Positions 15,760 through 35,192 are shown, counted from the stretch's first letter. The stretch: DNA of 64,000 nucleotides from Escherichia phage vB_EcoM_P8 (PV390659.2); one strand, 5' to 3'. Notes: generated by a model from the sequence alone, not told the origin. Made by a program: numbers and translations.

Positions 15760-16610
15760 AGAATTTTAAACTTGACATTAATGATGAATTTTTAATAAAG
15801 GAATTAGTTGAAAAATTAGCGTTGAGTGAAGAAGACGCCAAGTCTTACATTAATTTTATTTCTATGAATTCAACTGTTAAAACTCCAGGTAAAACGGAAG
15901 CACACCACGTGCTTCCTAAATCAATATTTCCTGAATATTTAAAATCTACATGGAATTTAGTTAATTTAAGTCATTTTAATCATTTTAAAGCACACTTCTT
16001 ATTAGCAAAAGGTAAAAATGGAAAAATGCTAAATGCTTTAAATAGAATGATGTCAGGAAAAACATATAAAAATTTATCTTTAGCCGAAGTTGATTTAATA
16101 GCTGCTGAATATAGTTTTATAAAACAAGATGTAAGTGACACAATATCAAAAAGGCTTCAACAGTATTATTCAAATCCGCAAAATAGAAATGCTGCTAGAG
16201 AAAGGGCATTAAAATATTTTTCAGTAGCAAAAAATAGGAAAGATAACAAAGAAAGATTAAATAATTTTAAAACAAAACAAAAAATTTCAATGGCTTCAAG
16301 GGAATGGTTTAATAACGAAGAAAATAAAATTAAACACCAAAAGGCTGTTCGTGCTGCTTTATCAAAACCTGAATATAAAATAGCTATATCAAATTCAGTA
16401 GCTGCTAGTTGGAAAAATCCGGAGATTAGAAAAGCTCATATAGCATCTCGACGAAAAGGCTATCATTGGGATAATAAAGATAAATTGTATGAATTGTGGA
16501 TATCATATAATCGTCCTAAACATGTGATGTTTAGGAAAATGCTAGTTAAGAATGGATATCCAATAGAGGCTTCATTACAGGCTTTAGTTAAAGAATTTTC
16601 TTCATTGTGA
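15756..16610 (+). CDS. free-standing HNH homing endonuclease (Mob-like)
   Basis: 284 aa, GTG start; HH..N..H motif (EAHHVLPKS..NLVNLSHFNH); repetitive basic C-terminus; AT-rich codon usage. Confidence 0.7.
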   Translation: MKNFKLDINDEFLIKELVEKLALSEEDAKSYINFISMNSTVKTPGKTEAHHVLPKSIFPEYLKSTWNLVNLSHFNHFKAHFLLAKGKNGKMLNALNRMMSGKTYKNLSLAEVDLIAAEYSFIKQDVSDTISKRLQQYYSNPQNRNAARERALKYFSVAKNRKDNKERLNNFKTKQKISMASREWFNNEENKIKHQKAVRAALSKPEYKIAISNSVAASWKNPEIRKAHIASRRKGYHWDNKDKLYELWISYNRPKHVMFRKMLVKNGYPIEASLQALVKEFSSL

Positions 16611-21717: not shown

Positions 21718-24414
21718 ATGAAAGAATTTTATATCTCTATCGAAACAGTCGGAAATAACATTGTTGAGCGTTACATTGATGAAAACGGAAAGGAACGTAC
21801 TCGTGAAGTAGAATATCTTCCGACTATGTTTAGGCATTGTAAGGAAGAGTCAAAATACAAAGACATTTATGGTAAAAATTGCGCTCCTCAAAAATTTCCA
21901 TCAATGAAAGATGCACGAGACTGGATGAAGCGAATGGAAGACATCGGTCTCGAAGCTCTCGGTATGAACGATTTTAAACTCACTTATATCAGTGATACAT
22001 ATGGTTCAGAAATTGTTTATGACCGAAAATTTGTTCGTGTAGCTAACTGTGACATTGAGGTTACTGGCGATAAATTTCCTGACCCAATGAAAGCAGAATA
22101 TGAAATTGATGCTATCACTCATTATGATTCAATTGACGACCGTTTTTACGTTTTTGATTTGTTGAATTCAATGTATGGTTCAGTATCAAAATGGGATGCA
22201 AAGTTAGCTGCTAAGCTTGACTGTGAAGGTGGTGATGAAGTTCCTCAAGAAATTCTTGACCGAGTAATTTATATGCCATTTGATAATGAGCGTGATATGC
22301 TCATGGAATATATTAATCTCTGGGAACAGAAACGACCTGCTATTTTTACCGGTTGGAATATTGAGGGATTTGACGTTCCGTATATCATGAATCGTGTTAA
22401 AATGGTTCTCGGCGAACGTAGTATGAAACGCTTCTCTCCAATCGGTCGAGTAAAATCTAAATTAATTCAAAATATGTACGGTAGCAAAGAAATTTATTCT
22501 ATTGATGGCGTATCTATTCTTGATTATTTAGATTTGTATAAGAAATTCGCATTTACTAATTTGCCGTCATTTTCTTTGGAATCAGTTGCTCAACATGAAA
22601 CCAAAAAAGGTAAATTACCATATGATGGTCCTATTAATAAACTTCGTGAGACTAATCATCAACGATACATTAGTTATAACATCATTGACGTAGAATCAGT
22701 TCAAGCAATTGATAAAATTCGTGGGTTTATCGATCTAGTTTTAAGTATGTCCTATTACGCTAAAATGCCTTTTTCTGGTGTAATGAGTCCTATTAAAACT
22801 TGGGATGCTATTATTTTTAACTCGTTGAAAAGTGAACATAAGGTTATTCCTCAACAAGGTTCACACGTTAAACAGAGTTTTCCGGGTGCATTTGTGTTTG
22901 AACCTAAACCGATTGCTCGTCGATACATTATGAGTTTTGACTTGACGTCTCTGTATCCTAGCATTATTCGTCAGGTTAACATTAGTCCTGAGACTATTCG
23001 TGGACAGTTTAAAGTTCATCCAATTCATGAATATATCGCAGGAACAGCTCCTAAGCCAAGTGATGAGTATTCATGTTCTCCGAATGGATGGATGTATGAT
23101 AAGCATCAAGAAGGTATCATTCCAAAGGAAATCGCTAAAGTATTTTTCCAGCGTAAATATTGGAAAAAGAAAATGTTCGCCGAAGAAATGAATGCCGAAG
23201 CTATTAAAAAGATTATTATGAAAGGTGCAGGGTCTTGTTCAACTAAACCAGAAGTTGAACGATATGTTAAGTTTAATGATGATTTCTTAAACGAATTATC
23301 GAATTACACCGAATCTGTTCTTAATAGTCTGATCGAAGAGTGCGAAAAAGCAGCTACACTTGCTAATACAAATCAGCTGAACCGTAAAATTCTTATTAAC
23401 AGTCTTTATGGTGCTCTTGGTAATATTCATTTCCGTTACTATGATTTGCGAAATGCTACTGCTATCACAATTTTTGGTCAAGTTGGTATTCAGTGGATTG
23501 CTCGTAAAATTAATGAATACCTGAATAAGGTGTGTGGAACTAATGGTGAAGATTTCATCGCAGCAGGTGATACTGATTCGGTATATGTTTGTGTAGATAA
23601 AGTAATTGAAAAAGTAGGTCTTGACCGCTTTAAAGAACAAAATGATTTAGTTGAATTCATGAATCAGTTTGGTAAGAAAAAGATGGAACCTATGATTGAT
23701 GTTGCATATCGTGAGTTATGTGATTATATGAATAACCGCGAGCATCTGATGCATATGGACCGTGAAGCTATTTCTTGTCCTCCGCTTGGTTCAAAGGGTG
23801 TCGGTGGATTTTGGAAAGCGAAAAAACGTTATGCTCTGAACGTTTATGATATGGAAGATAAGCGATTTGCTGAACCACATCTAAAAATCATGGGTATGGA
23901 AACTCAGCAGAGTTCAACACCAAAAGCAGTGCAAGAAGCTCTCGAAGAAAGTATTCGTCGTATTCTTCAGGAAGGTGAAGAGTCTGTCCAAGAATACTAT
24001 AAGAACTTTGAGAAAGAATATCGTCAACTTGACTATAAAGTTATTGCTGAAGTAAAAACCGCGAATGATATAGCGAAATATGATGATAAAGGTTGGCCAG
24101 GATTTAAATGTCCGTTCCACATTCGTGGGGTGCTAACTTATCGTCGAGCTGTTAGTGGTTTAGGTGTAGCTCCAATTTTGGATGGAAATAAGGTAATGGT
24201 TCTTCCATTACGTGAAGGAAATCCATTTGGTGACAAGTGCATTGCTTGGCCATCAGGCACAGAACTTCCAAAAGAAATTCGTTCTGATGTACTGTCTTGG
24301 ATTGACTACTCAACTTTGTTCCAAAAATCGTTTGTTAAACCGCTTGCGGGTATGTGTGAATCGGCAGGTATGGACTATGAGGAAAAAGCTTCGTTAGACT
24401 TCCTGTTTGGCTGA
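21718..24414 (+). CDS. 43: DNA polymerase gp43 (family B)
   Basis: 898 aa, matches remembered T4 gp43 including exo and pol motifs. Confidence 0.95.
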   Translation: MKEFYISIETVGNNIVERYIDENGKERTREVEYLPTMFRHCKEESKYKDIYGKNCAPQKFPSMKDARDWMKRMEDIGLEALGMNDFKLTYISDTYGSEIVYDRKFVRVANCDIEVTGDKFPDPMKAEYEIDAITHYDSIDDRFYVFDLLNSMYGSVSKWDAKLAAKLDCEGGDEVPQEILDRVIYMPFDNERDMLMEYINLWEQKRPAIFTGWNIEGFDVPYIMNRVKMVLGERSMKRFSPIGRVKSKLIQNMYGSKEIYSIDGVSILDYLDLYKKFAFTNLPSFSLESVAQHETKKGKLPYDGPINKLRETNHQRYISYNIIDVESVQAIDKIRGFIDLVLSMSYYAKMPFSGVMSPIKTWDAIIFNSLKSEHKVIPQQGSHVKQSFPGAFVFEPKPIARRYIMSFDLTSLYPSIIRQVNISPETIRGQFKVHPIHEYIAGTAPKPSDEYSCSPNGWMYDKHQEGIIPKEIAKVFFQRKYWKKKMFAEEMNAEAIKKIIMKGAGSCSTKPEVERYVKFNDDFLNELSNYTESVLNSLIEECEKAATLANTNQLNRKILINSLYGALGNIHFRYYDLRNATAITIFGQVGIQWIARKINEYLNKVCGTNGEDFIAAGDTDSVYVCVDKVIEKVGLDRFKEQNDLVEFMNQFGKKKMEPMIDVAYRELCDYMNNREHLMHMDREAISCPPLGSKGVGGFWKAKKRYALNVYDMEDKRFAEPHLKIMGMETQQSSTPKAVQEALEESIRRILQEGEESVQEYYKNFEKEYRQLDYKVIAEVKTANDIAKYDDKGWPGFKCPFHIRGVLTYRRAVSGLGVAPILDGNKVMVLPLREGNPFGDKCIAWPSGTELPKEIRSDVLSWIDYSTLFQKSFVKPLAGMCESAGMDYEEKASLDFLFG

Positions 24415-24427
24415 TAGAATAAATCTA

Positions 24428-24448
24428 GGGACCTCCGGGTCCCTTTTT
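24428..24448 (+). terminator. intrinsic terminator (GGGACC-UCCG-GGUCCC + T5)
   Basis: perfect 6-bp GC stem and T run after gene 43. Confidence 0.7.
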
Positions 24449-24531
24449 CATACAAGTAATATAAATCTATACTTAGGAAAAATAGATGATTCTGGACCTC
24501 TGGAATTCATTAAAAAATTTTTCACAAAATG

Positions 24532-24561
24532 GTTTACAAGACTGTTCCTCTGTGGTACTAT
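24532..24561 (+). promoter_or_regulatory. T4-type early promoter with A/T-rich upstream element
   Basis: gtttac 24532-24537, tactat 24556-24561; member of conserved cassette family (also 52529, 53045, 56171). Confidence 0.6.
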
Positions 24562-24595
24562 ACAACTATCAACCAATACAGATTTGGAGAATGAA

Positions 24596-24976
24596 ATGAA
24601 AATCGCTATTTTAGTTATTGCATTGGGTCTTACTGGTTGTGTAGCTCAAGGACCAGTAGTAAATCAGTCTGATGCAGGAAAAATTGTAAACTGTTCAAGC
24701 AAATTTTATAATCCTAACGTCAAGTGTTATAAAGAAGCTCCAAAACAGACAGTAGAAGAAATGCAGGCGAATTTTGACGAAGCTATTCGTCCAGATGAAT
24801 CTGCTCAAGCATATCGTAATTCAGATGTGATTACGCGTGAAGAAAAAATTGAAAACTACTGCGCTGAACTTTGGGCTAATTGGGCTAATAATTACCAATG
24901 GCGTACTGGTAAAAATGCTCCGATGGAGTATGTAGTAAATTCTTACAATTCATGCGTAAAAAATTTGACTAAGTGA
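24596..24976 (+). CDS. predicted lipoprotein (signal peptide with lipobox LTGC)
   Basis: ATG 24596 after GGAG; MKIAILVIALGLTGC; track ORF 24407..24976 is an N-terminal over-extension across the promoter. Confidence 0.55.
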   Translation: MKIAILVIALGLTGCVAQGPVVNQSDAGKIVNCSSKFYNPNVKCYKEAPKQTVEEMQANFDEAIRPDESAQAYRNSDVITREEKIENYCAELWANWANNYQWRTGKNAPMEYVVNSYNSCVKNLTK

Positions 24977-24982
24977 GGAAAC

Positions 24983-25234
24983 ATGGAAACTTTAGTAGCA
25001 GGTTCAATTTTTATGGTTTTAGTTTCAGGCGTGTTGGCTATTATTATATACATGCTTCCGTGGTTCATCGCCTTGATGCGTGGGTCAAAATCGACAGTAG
25101 GAATCTTTTTCACATCTTTACTGTTTAACTGGTCAATTATTGGTTGGTTTATTACATTTATTTGGTCAATTGCGGGTGAAACTAAAAAGTCAACACAGCC
25201 AAATCAAGTAATTATCATCAGAGAGAAGGAATGA
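24983..25234 (+). CDS. imm: immunity to superinfection membrane protein Imm
   Basis: 83 aa, two TM segments, matches remembered T4 Imm. Confidence 0.85.
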   Translation: METLVAGSIFMVLVSGVLAIIIYMLPWFIALMRGSKSTVGIFFTSLLFNWSIIGWFITFIWSIAGETKKSTQPNQVIIIREKE

Positions 25235-25380
25235 AAAGCAAAATTATAACAGTGTTGCTTTTAATCTTGATGATTATAATAAGTATATACTATAGTGTAA
25301 CGGTTCCTCTTATGATTCCAACTATTATTTTAGGTTGGGGTTTATTACTGTTACAAGTTAAATATGAATGTATCAATTGA
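25231..25380 (+). CDS. small membrane protein (49 aa)
   Basis: ATGA overlap with imm stop; entirely hydrophobic. Confidence 0.35.
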   Translation: MKSKIITVLLLILMIIISIYYSVTVPLMIPTIILGWGLLLLQVKYECIN

Positions 25381-25387
25381 GGTTTAA

Positions 25388-26128
25388 ATGATTAATGACT
25401 CTATGACAGTTGAAGAAATTCGTCTTCATTTGGGAATTGCATTAAAGGAAAAAGATTTTGTAATTGACAAAACCGGGGTTAAAACTATTGAAATTATTGG
25501 TGCATCATTTGTAGCAGATGAACCTTTTATTTTTGGTGCTCTTAATGATGAATACATTCAGCGTGAACTTGAATGGTATAAGTCTCAAAGTCTGTGTGTT
25601 AAAGATATTCCAGGTGAAACACCAAAGATTTGGCAGCAGGTAGCATCTTCTAAAGGCGAAATTAACTCGAATTATGGTTGGGCCATCTGGTCAGAAGATA
25701 ACTATGCTCAGTATGACATGTGTTTAGCTGAACTTGGTCAAAATCCTGATTCTCGACGTGGTATCATGATTTATACTCGTCCATCCATGCAGTTTGACTA
25801 CAATAAAGATGGTATGTCAGATTTCATGTGTACGAATACAGTACAGTACCTGATTCGTGATAAGAAAGTCAATGCAGTGGTTAATATGCGCTCAAATGAC
25901 GTAGTCTTCGGATTCCGTAATGATTATGCATGGCAAAAATACGTACTAGATAAATTAGTATCTGATTTGAATGCAGGTGATTCAACTCGTCAGTATAAAG
26001 CAGGTTCCATTATATGGAATGTCGGAAGCCTTCATGTGTATTCCCGTCATTTTTATTTGGTTGACCATTGGTGGAAAACTGGCGAAACTCATATTGCGAA
26101 AAAAGATTATAACGGTGAGTGGAAATGA
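25388..26128 (+). CDS. 42: dCMP hydroxymethylase gp42
   Basis: 246 aa, thymidylate-synthase-like. Confidence 0.9.
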   Translation: MINDSMTVEEIRLHLGIALKEKDFVIDKTGVKTIEIIGASFVADEPFIFGALNDEYIQRELEWYKSQSLCVKDIPGETPKIWQQVASSKGEINSNYGWAIWSEDNYAQYDMCLAELGQNPDSRRGIMIYTRPSMQFDYNKDGMSDFMCTNTVQYLIRDKKVNAVVNMRSNDVVFGFRNDYAWQKYVLDKLVSDLNAGDSTRQYKAGSIIWNVGSLHVYSRHFYLVDHWWKTGETHIAKKDYNGEWK

Positions 26129-26967
26129 TTCAATTCGTAATTCCAAGCTATCAGCGCGTAGGGGCAGTTTCTGCCCTTGATATGTTTCCGACTGATTATG
26201 AACCTCATATTGTAGTACGTGAACACGAAGAAAAAGCTTATTATGACGCTTACGGGTCTAGAGCTAAAATTATAACTATTCCTGATGATGTTAATGGAAT
26301 TGCTGGTACTCGTAAAGCAATTACTGATATGTATGCAGGTCAACGAATCTGGATGATCGATGATGATACTACTATTCGTATGAGTTCAATGCGAAAGAAA
26401 GATGATCGTCGCTGTGTAGATAAAATTAATCAGTTAACCCGTGAACAGTTCTATGAATTGATTCAATACGTTGAAGATGCTATGGATTGCGGGTATTATC
26501 ATGGTCATGCTCGCCTACCAATTTTTAAAATTACTTCATCTTGGGGTAATTATCGTGAAAATTCATATGGATTCACGAATACATGGTATGACCTTGGAAA
26601 ACTTACGACAGAACAAATTGGGTATGGAAAAATTGATTTGTGCGAAGATATGTATGCATTTCTCAATTTAATTAATCAAGGTTATCCGCATTTGGCCTTG
26701 TTCAAATATCTGGTTGTATCTGGAAAAGCACAAGCTCCCGGTGGATGCAGCTCAATTCGTAGTAATTCAAAACATAATAGAGCTCTCGAGCAAATCAATA
26801 GAGAGTTTCCAGAGCAAACTCGTTGGAAAACTTCTAATATTGAAAAACGAAAATCATTAGGTGAAGAAGACGAGCCATTAAAGGTTCTTCGCATGTGTGT
26901 TTCGCGCAAAGAAAAATCAGAAGCGTTTCATAAGTTTAATGCTATTCATCCAATAGCAGTTGATTAA
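26119..26967 (+). CDS. DNA glycosyltransferase (GT-A-like, DxD), probable beta-glucosyl-HMC-alpha-glucosyltransferase of T2/T6 type
   Basis: 280-282 aa in the slot held by 351-aa beta-gt in T4; IDDDTT motif. Confidence 0.55.
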   Translation: MEMIQFVIPSYQRVGAVSALDMFPTDYEPHIVVREHEEKAYYDAYGSRAKIITIPDDVNGIAGTRKAITDMYAGQRIWMIDDDTTIRMSSMRKKDDRRCVDKINQLTREQFYELIQYVEDAMDCGYYHGHARLPIFKITSSWGNYRENSYGFTNTWYDLGKLTTEQIGYGKIDLCEDMYAFLNLINQGYPHLALFKYLVVSGKAQAPGGCSSIRSNSKHNRALEQINREFPEQTRWKTSNIEKRKSLGEEDEPLKVLRMCVSRKEKSEAFHKFNAIHPIAVD

Positions 26968-27044
26968 TGCCTAAATTTATTGTGTTATAATTACCCTATC
27001 TTTAACCAGTGAGGAAAATATAATGATGCCTATGGAAAAAATGA

Positions 27045-28226
27045 ATGTCTATTGCAGATTTAAAATCCCGTTTGATTAAAGCTTCCACTTCTAAAATGAC
27101 TGCTGAACTGACTACATCTAAATTCTTTAATGAAAAGGATGTAATCCGTACAAAAATCCCAATGCTTAATATCGCTATTTCCGGTGCGATTGATGGTGGA
27201 ATGCAGTCTGGTTTAACTATTTTTGCAGGTCCTTCTAAACACTTTAAATCAAATATGTCTTTGACTATGGTTGCGGCGTATTTGAACAAATATCCTGATG
27301 CGGTTTGTTTATTCTATGATAGCGAATTTGGTATCACTCCAGCTTATTTGCGATCCATGGGAGTCGACCCGGAACGAGTAATTCATACACCAATTCAGTC
27401 AGTTGAACAGCTGAAAATTGATATGGTGAATCAGCTTGAAGCCATTGAGCGCGGTGAAAAGGTTATTGTATTCATCGACTCAATCGGTAATATGGCTTCT
27501 AAGAAAGAAACGGAAGATGCCTTGAATGAAAAATCTGTGGCAGATATGACTCGTGCTAAATCGCTGAAGTCATTATTCCGTATTGTTACTCCTTATTTTA
27601 GCATTAAAAATATTCCATGTGTTGCGGTTAACCATACAATTGAAACAATTGAAATGTTTAGTAAAACCGTGATGACAGGTGGTACAGGCGTAATGTATTC
27701 AGCTGATACTGTATTCATTATCGGTAAGCGTCAGATTAAAGATGGTTCTGATCTTCAGGGGTATCAATTTGTTCTAAATGTAGAAAAATCTCGTACCGTC
27801 AAAGAAAAAAGTAAATTCTTTATTGATGTTAAATTTGACGGTGGTATCGATCCTTATTCTGGATTGTTAGATATGGCTCTTGAATTAGGATTTGTAGTAA
27901 AACCTAAAAATGGTTGGTATGCTCGTGAATTTCTTGACGAAGAAACCGGCGAGATGATTCGCGAAGAAAAATCTTGGCGTGCAAAAGATACCAACTGTAC
28001 TACATTCTGGGGTCCTTTATTTAAGCATCAACCATTCCGAGATGCTATTAAACGCGCTTATCAGTTAGGTGCTATTGATAGTAATGAAATTGTTGAAGCT
28101 GAAGTTGATGAATTGATTAACTCAAAGGTTGAAAAATTTAAATCTCCAGAAAGTAAAAGTAAATCAGCAGCTGATTTAGAAACTGACCTAGAACAGTTAA
28201 GTGATATGGAAGAATTTAATGAATAA
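27045..28226 (+). CDS. uvsX: RecA-like recombinase UvsX
   Basis: 393 aa, matches remembered T4 UvsX. Confidence 0.95.
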   Translation: MSIADLKSRLIKASTSKMTAELTTSKFFNEKDVIRTKIPMLNIAISGAIDGGMQSGLTIFAGPSKHFKSNMSLTMVAAYLNKYPDAVCLFYDSEFGITPAYLRSMGVDPERVIHTPIQSVEQLKIDMVNQLEAIERGEKVIVFIDSIGNMASKKETEDALNEKSVADMTRAKSLKSLFRIVTPYFSIKNIPCVAVNHTIETIEMFSKTVMTGGTGVMYSADTVFIIGKRQIKDGSDLQGYQFVLNVEKSRTVKEKSKFFIDVKFDGGIDPYSGLLDMALELGFVVKPKNGWYAREFLDEETGEMIREEKSWRAKDTNCTTFWGPLFKHQPFRDAIKRAYQLGAIDSNEIVEAEVDELINSKVEKFKSPESKSKSAADLETDLEQLSDMEEFNE

Positions 28227-33273: not shown

Positions 33274-34613
<1,340 letters not shown>

Positions 34614-34673: not shown

Positions 34674-35192
34674 ATGGCATACTTTAATGAATGTTCACAG
34701 CTGATCGAAGGCGCTGATAAAGCTCAAAATGAATACTGGGATATTCTCGGTGATGAAAAAGACCCGCTGCAGGTTATGCTTGATATGCAGAAATCTCTGC
34801 AGGTTCGTTTAGCTAAAGATAAACCTGAATATAACCGTCATCCTGATGATTTGGCTACTGCAGGTGAAGTTGTTGATTGGCTGCGTAATCAGAAAGATTA
34901 TATTGACGATGAATTCCGTGAACTTCTAACTTCTCTTGGCGGTATGAGCAATGGCGAAAAAGATGCATCTGCTGTATGGAAGCCTTGGAAGTCACAGCAT
35001 GGTGAACGCCGTGAAACTCTAATTACTGATTTGTCTCCACAAGACCAGTTGGAAATTAAATTCGAAATGATTGATATTCTTCATTTCGTTCTGAACATGT
35101 TCCAAGGTCTCGGCCTTACTGCTGAAGAAATCTTTAAACTTTATTATCTGAAGAATGCTGAAAACTTCGCTCGTCAAGACCGAGGTTATTAA
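34674..35192 (+). CDS. 56: dCTPase/dUTPase gp56
   Basis: ORF track 34659..35192; ATG 34674 gives MAYFNECSQ.. as in T4 gp56. Confidence 0.85.
   Translation: MAYFNECSQLIEGADKAQNEYWDILGDEKDPLQVMLDMQKSLQVRLAKDKPEYNRHPDDLATAGEVVDWLRNQKDYIDDEFRELLTSLGGMSNGEKDASAVWKPWKSQHGERRETLITDLSPQDQLEIKFEMIDILHFVLNMFQGLGLTAEEIFKLYYLKNAENFARQDRGY

Follow-up and report, generated by a model that had tools for sequence, protein, structure and literature searches.

The gene 42–uvsX interval

The DNA analysed here, referred to as the window, is a 64,000-nucleotide stretch of Escherichia phage vB_EcoM_P8 (PV390659.2) and represents a segment of a Tequatrovirus (T-even phage) genome. On its plus strand, gene 42 (25388–26128), identified from its ORF, a Pfam Thymidylat_synt match and the gp42 annotation in T2 and T6, encodes the dCMP hydroxymethylase that provides the 5-hydroxymethylcytosine (hmC) precursor. 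It is followed by a gene that we assign, from its ORF, orthology, PHROG 842 and PF20691, to beta-glucosyl-HMC-alpha-glucosyltransferase (ba-gt, also ggt or TAGT; plus strand, 26125–26967, 280 aa plus stop). A spacer of 77 nt separates ba-gt from uvsX (plus strand, 27045–28226), an ORF annotated as such in BMB16, T2 and T6. The order gene 42–ba-gt–uvsX is common to the window, T2, T6, NR1, Geo and Escherichia phage vB_EcoM_BMB16 (BMB16).

A preliminary description of this DNA had reported an ORF of 280–282 aa with an IDDDTT motif after gene 42, and both lengths were recovered. In the ORF listing of the window, the longest ORF at the site (plus strand, 26119–26967) begins with GTG and encodes 282 aa, and an in-frame ATG at 26125 yields a 280-aa product beginning MIQFVIPSYQR. 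In the sequence ATGA, this ATG overlaps the gene 42 stop codon TGA, and it starts 6 nt 3′ of a Shine–Dalgarno-like GGTGA, and its equivalent is the start in all 280-aa homologue coding sequences checked (BMB16, three T2 records, NR1 and Geo). We therefore placed the start of ba-gt at 26125, on the strength of the homologues checked and of the overlap with the gene 42 stop codon. The GTG at 26119 was rejected as a start on the same two grounds, so that the two extra codons of the mechanical 282-aa ORF (GTG GAA, plus strand, 26119–26124) lie outside the gene.

Scanning 24300–27300 for promoters and terminators gave nothing above shuffled sequence (16 promoter-like sites, where 12.5 ± 3.8 were expected), and no promoter of ba-gt's own was assignable in that interval. 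The terminator scan flagged a hairpin at 26159–26179 (plus strand; 9-bp stem, TAGGGGCAG TTT CTGCCCTTG) that is kept in T2 and T6 and lies inside ba-gt codons 12–19, just 5′ of the in-frame ATG of M20; it was not significant when the surrounding 101 nt were folded (z = -1.5). The base composition of the ba-gt cassette is the same as that of its neighbours and thus gives no sign of a recent foreign origin.

A TAGT-family glycosyltransferase

Database comparisons placed the ORF firmly within a widespread phage gene family. Its DNA is 100% identical to a BMB16 gene annotated 'glucosyl transferase' and matches 479 phage records, 474 of them at 90% nucleotide identity or more and many annotated as beta-glucosyl-HMC-alpha-glucosyltransferase; its protein product matches 690 records. 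These 479 nucleotide-level and 690 protein-level matches show that the reading frame is not there by chance. More distant homologues are found in Klebsiella, Enterobacter and Citrobacter phages (60–65% identical) and in Serratia phages (47%). The protein is identical to that of T2 at 275 of 280 positions (98.2%, in each of three independent T2 records) and to that of T6 at 273 of 280 (97.5%). It also matches PHROG 842, 'beta-glucosyl-HMC-alpha-glucosyltransferase' (E 4e-88, residues 1–275), and Pfam PF20691, TET-associated glycosyltransferase (TAGT), at 38.8 bits against a gathering cut-off of 27.5, with residues 3–207 covering positions 2–205 of the 205-position profile. The TAGT family is large, with 2139 representatives of 50%-identity clusters at E ≤ 1e-3 in an exhaustive profile search, the only search in which this wider family was visible; a simpler search for homologous proteins returned 11 cluster representatives.

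Conservation was counted in an alignment of 61 diverse TAGT-family members, in which R11, D80, D81, D175, G186 and G207 are invariant (61/61) and D79, G206 and R212 are each present in 60 of 61; the window protein retains all of these residues. They cluster in four recognizable elements on the plus strand. IPSYQR (residues 6–11; 26140–26157, with the R11 codon at 26155–26157) lies on and after the first beta-strand, modelled at residues 2–6. The DDD of the IDDDTT motif (residues 78–83; 26356–26373) comprises D79–D81 (26359–26367) at the end of a modelled beta-strand (residues 74–79) and, from its conservation, is the predicted DxD motif binding metal and UDP-sugar. E174–D175 (26644–26649), within 'CEDMY', is the candidate catalytic base of an inverting GT-A enzyme, D175 being invariant and E174 present in 46 of 61 members; the base role is taken from what is generally known of GT2 'ED' motifs. 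GGCSSIR (residues 206–212; 26740–26760), a conserved family motif, falls in a low-confidence loop of the structural model (residues 200–210).

The predicted structure, a model of moderate confidence in which loops 87–99, 131–143 and 200–210 have pLDDT values below 50, has a GT-A fold with the DxD motif closing the fourth beta-strand. The earlier assignment of the ORF as a DxD-type glycosyltransferase is thereby upheld by the GT-A model together with the conserved DDD, PHROG 842 and Pfam TAGT, and the model predicts a glycosyltransferase fold rather than the lack of one. Sequence searches of the PDB, with the single protein and with the family profile, found no solved TAGT structure. The single-protein search returned only a chance match (E 0.76). 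The top matches of the family profile were de novo designed TIM barrels (6wvs, 7p12 and 6yqx), which we judged spurious and not homologous because their score comes from repeated short, low-scoring 'I..DD...deml' stretches in the designed proteins. The only natural match of the profile was 9jma, a GT2 beta-1,3-glucosyltransferase, at a weak E-value of 0.15; it pairs IPSYKR of the profile with IPTYNR and DDD with DDDD, so that R11 falls on the Arg of IPTYNR, the nucleotide-binding IPxYNR motif of GT2. Pfam Glycos_transf_2 gave no match. The T6 TAGT has been modelled as a GT-A enzyme, sister to GT2 (PMC13216743). Cellular GT2 enzymes of the GT-A type (the AvpGT beta-1,3-glucosyltransferase 9jma, BcsA and TarP) are just 8–15% identical to the window protein and differ from it in acceptor, using a lipid-linked or polymeric glycan where ba-gt uses a sugar on DNA.

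The T4 beta-gt slot and the glucosylation pathway

In T4, the position after gene 42 is occupied by beta-gt, which, like ba-gt, is a UDP-glucose-dependent DNA-modifying enzyme forming a beta linkage. The proposal that the window gene is not this 351-aa enzyme was confirmed: blastp gave only fragments of 8–17 aa at E-values of at least 3.4, and PF09198, the T4 beta-gt domain, did not match at E ≤ 1. Homology to T4 beta-gt was rejected, being absent at both the protein (blastp) and DNA (blastn) levels. The folds differ as well, T4 beta-gt (Pfam PF09198, PDB 1JG7) being GT-B and the window protein GT-A (PMC13216743), in which the two-Rossmann-domain arrangement of GT-B is not found. At the DNA level, the imm–gene 42 region is 94.9% identical between the window and T4, and a blastn comparison showed that homology extends to 26110, leaving out the last 18 nt of gene 42, and picks up again at 27057, 12 nt into uvsX. 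The intervening 946 bp (plus strand, 26111–27056) has no DNA homology to T4 and therefore replaces T4's 1.9-kb beta-gt and segA block (NC_000866, 23556–25496). In T4, beta-gt is followed by the homing endonuclease gene segA, whereas the window has ba-gt and the spacer without segA. The syntenic positions of TAGT and T4 beta-gt have been explicitly noted (PMC13390438).

The window allele is the more frequent of the two. Near matches to T4 beta-gt were found in just 29 phage records, which mostly belong to T4 itself, RB55 or RB59, against the 479 records that match ba-gt. Twelve of 14 sequenced T4-like RB phages carry alpha-gt and ba-gt (PMC6024577), and alpha-gt is combined with beta-gt in only 6 of 753 glycosyltransferase-encoding phage genomes (PMC13216743). 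The combination of alpha-gt and TAGT is thus the common, majority state of Tequatrovirus, and T4 is the exception. In RB55 (KM607002.1) and RB59 (KM607003.1), a T4-type beta-gt that is 100% identical to T4 b-gt is labelled 'beta-glucosyl-HMC-alpha-glucosyl-transferase', and many records describe the true ba-gt simply as 'glucosyl transferase' or as a 'hypothetical protein'; the two genes are confused in public annotation. The identification of ba-gt is correct but ordinary and already known, the enzyme having been recognized in T2 and T6 for decades, and it brings no biological novelty. A paper of 2026 had already assigned the TAGT fold and described its distribution (PMC13216743).

The window also carries the partner genes. 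[quoted passage not shown] Gene 56 (plus strand, 34674–35192) encodes the dCTPase/dUTPase that keeps unmodified C out of phage DNA; it was located by the BMB16 annotation offset and a weak Pfam dUTPase_2 match, and occupies the position at which T6, T2 and Geo have an annotated dCTP pyrophosphatase. In the proposed pathway, gene 42 and gene 56 would cause phage DNA to be made with hmC, and alpha-gt would use UDP-glucose to attach an alpha-linked glucose to hmC. The inverting GT-A enzyme ba-gt would then add a second glucose, also from UDP-glucose, beta-1,6, onto the alpha-glucose to give gentiobiosyl-hmC, its DDD (residues 79–81) binding metal and UDP-sugar and E174/D175 being the likely base. 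In T2 and T6, alpha-gt glucosylates hmC and ba-gt/TAGT then adds the second glucose to form gentiobiosyl-hmC (PMC13216743, PMC6024577). This pathway predicts virion DNA containing hmC, alpha-glucosyl-hmC and gentiobiosyl-hmC and no beta-glucosyl-hmC, which is the composition found by LC-MS in Tequatroviruses with alpha-gt and TAGT (PMC13390438). Among the phages measured, NR1, whose ba-gt differs from the window protein at four positions (D24N, K92R, I101V and T232A), has about one-third hmC and two-thirds gentiobiosyl-hmC, and Geo, whose DNA runs collinear with that of the window and is about 93–97% identical to it, has hmC, glucosyl-hmC and gentiobiosyl-hmC in a 1:2:2 ratio (PMC13390438).

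Two other activities were weighed against this pathway. The window enzyme might be a non-homologous stand-in for T4 beta-gt, placing beta-glucose directly on the hmC that alpha-gt leaves free: the two genes share a genomic slot, and an inverting GT-A enzyme would give a beta linkage. T4 beta-gt acts on hmC directly, whereas ba-gt acts on alpha-glucosyl-hmC. In T2, T6 and the Durham phages with ba-gt, about 25–33% of hmC remains unglucosylated and beta-glucosyl-hmC goes undetected (PMC13390438, PMC11078745), and the DNA of T6 delta-ba-gt is reported to contain about 75% alpha-glucosyl-hmC (bioRxiv 10.64898/2026.02.25.707755), which together make a stand-in scarcely credible. The second candidate is a TAGT-family enzyme whose donor or acceptor is unlike that of T2/T6 ba-gt, using another sugar or glycosylating hmC directly. 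In its favour, the wider family, with its 2139 cluster representatives, is large and diverse, and it includes solitary TAGTs in phages without alpha- or beta-gt (PMC13216743); set against this, the window protein is 98% identical to the characterised T2/T6 enzymes, its gene shares their neighbours and alpha-gt partner, and in close relatives LC-MS detected only hmC, alpha-glucosyl-hmC and gentiobiosyl-hmC (PMC13390438). We regard a different substrate as very improbable.

We therefore read the ORF at 26125–26967 as the orthologue of T2/T6 ba-gt (ggt; Pfam TAGT), making gentiobiosyl-hmC with alpha-gt, with a probability of about 95%. Computation established the orthology and gene order, the class of fold, the integrity of the family-invariant residues and the presence of the partner genes, and the predicted chemistry is transferred from characterised orthologues. 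Nothing that we found contradicts the ba-gt identity of the ORF.

Alleles, gentiobiosyl content and defence sensitivity

T2/T6-style glucosylation had been predicted for this phage, and the computable parts of that prediction, namely the near-identity to both enzymes and the presence of alpha-gt, support it. 'T2/T6-style' spans a gentiobiosyl fraction of 5% in T2 to 72% in T6, and the fraction is not readable from sequence; the T2 and T6 ba-gt enzymes themselves differ at only a few residues. T2 ba-gt (UniProt Q06717, according to PMC6024577) has 280 aa and the gene 42–uvsX position and ATGA overlap seen in the window. All three deposited T2 records (MH751506, 7286–8128; AP018813, 2283–3125; LC348380, 2295–3137) carry R11H (CGY to CAT) and P251S, where the window has R11 and P251. 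K92, I101 and T232 set the window and BMB16 apart from most relatives compared, T2 included. T6 ba-gt occupies the same slot and has the same family-invariant motifs as the window protein, from which it differs by Y40N, D55G, K92R, I101V, R106H and T232A. The alpha-gt of T6 is a T4-like allele, whereas that of the window is T2-type (396/400 identical to T2 and 365/400 to T6).

T6 serves as the reference for the value of 72% gentiobiosyl-hmC, and both of its deposited genomes have an apparent ba-gt lesion, the window gene being intact. In MH550421 (7138–7980), CAG is changed to a TAG amber at codon 10, and the coding sequence is annotated from M20 (261 aa); in AP018814 (7135–7974), one GAT is missing from the GATGATGAT run, which reduces DDD to DD. 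These lesions reflect either drift of laboratory stocks or sequencing errors.

The R11H substitution is of modest interest as a possible source of the low T2 value, which has long been known. The window has R11 in common with NR1, Geo, both T6 records and five relatives from IMG/VR, and when ba-gt and alpha-gt alleles were compared across the phages of measured composition (T2, T6, NR1 and Geo), only the T2-specific R11H and P251S stood out. Because R11H hits a residue that is invariant in the family (61/61), T2 ba-gt may be a hypomorph. Pattern scans of the codon-11 context in IMG/VR gave no match with H11 and three with R11, too few to speak to the rarity of H11, and our literature search found no paper on R11H. 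The window enzyme, as judged from its residues, is more likely to be fully active, and since it keeps R11 where T2 has H, we infer a substantial rather than a T2-like trace gentiobiosyl fraction. We tentatively propose, at somewhat less than even odds, that diglucosylation is set by the allelic state of ba-gt and not by its mere presence, that R11H causes the approximately 5% of T2 against the 72% of T6, and that the R11-bearing window phage would be high in gentiobiosyl-hmC (T6/NR1-like) despite its T2-type alpha-gt. If this were true, one codon would suffice to predict sensitivity to defences such as Brig1 and BapA/Brig3. The ba-gt protein does not by itself account for the ratio, since R11 is shared by Geo (1:2:2) and NR1 (about two-thirds gentiobiosyl); other factors, for example expression and which alpha-gt allele is carried, also matter for the balance of mono- and diglucosylation.

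The same gene could instead operate as it does in T2, giving mostly mono-alpha-glucosyl-hmC with a few percent gentiobiosyl-hmC and a defence sensitivity (for example, to Brig1) like that of T2 and not T6. The slightly closer relationship of the window ba-gt to T2 (275/280) than to T6 (273/280) and the T2-type alpha-gt point in this direction, as does the gene for a dam DNA adenine methyltransferase in the window (plus strand, 33834–34613), which is also present in T2, T4 and Geo and absent from T6. In the Durham collection, the dam-carrying Tequatroviruses (Geo, EL and BGP) are those with the intermediate 1:2:2 ratio of hmC, glucosyl-hmC and gentiobiosyl-hmC (PMC13390438). A T2-like composition is nonetheless unlikely, as the window lacks the T2-specific R11H and P251S, the former at the family-invariant position, and as NR1, rich in gentiobiosyl-hmC, has a ba-gt that departs from the window protein only at the four positions given above (PMC13390438).

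The expectation that this modification changes sensitivity to host defences agrees with the literature on Brig1, BapA/Brig3 and GmrSD/BrxU (PMC11078745, bioRxiv 10.64898/2026.02.25.707755, PMC13216743, PMC13390438). Deletion of ba-gt from T6 abolished gentiobiosyl-hmC and increased Brig1 sensitivity, and the Brig1 glycosylase was unable to attack gentiobiosyl-hmC DNA in vitro (PMC11078745). Gentiobiosyl-hmC is likewise not deglucosylated by BapA (bioRxiv 10.64898/2026.02.25.707755), and DNA containing it is still cut by GmrSD and BrxU (PMC13216743, PMC13390438). In a phage with alpha-gt and ba-gt, gentiobiosyl-hmC is expected and beta-glucosyl-hmC is not, which matters mainly for annotation and for phenotype prediction, as the modification state affects susceptibility to Brig1-type glycosylases, BapA/Brig3, type IV enzymes of the GmrSD/BrxU type and restriction enzymes. 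Altered susceptibility to defences would in turn affect host range and therapeutic use.

Elsewhere in the window, the segment 15773–16634, between genes 47/46.2 and 46, is missing in phage Geo, which is collinear elsewhere. It contains a 248-aa ORF (plus strand, 15864–16610) for which Pfam gave no match. T2 and T6 carry other inserts at this site, annotated as mob-like homing endonuclease/T6ORF054, and the segment is likely to be a mobile or variable cassette.
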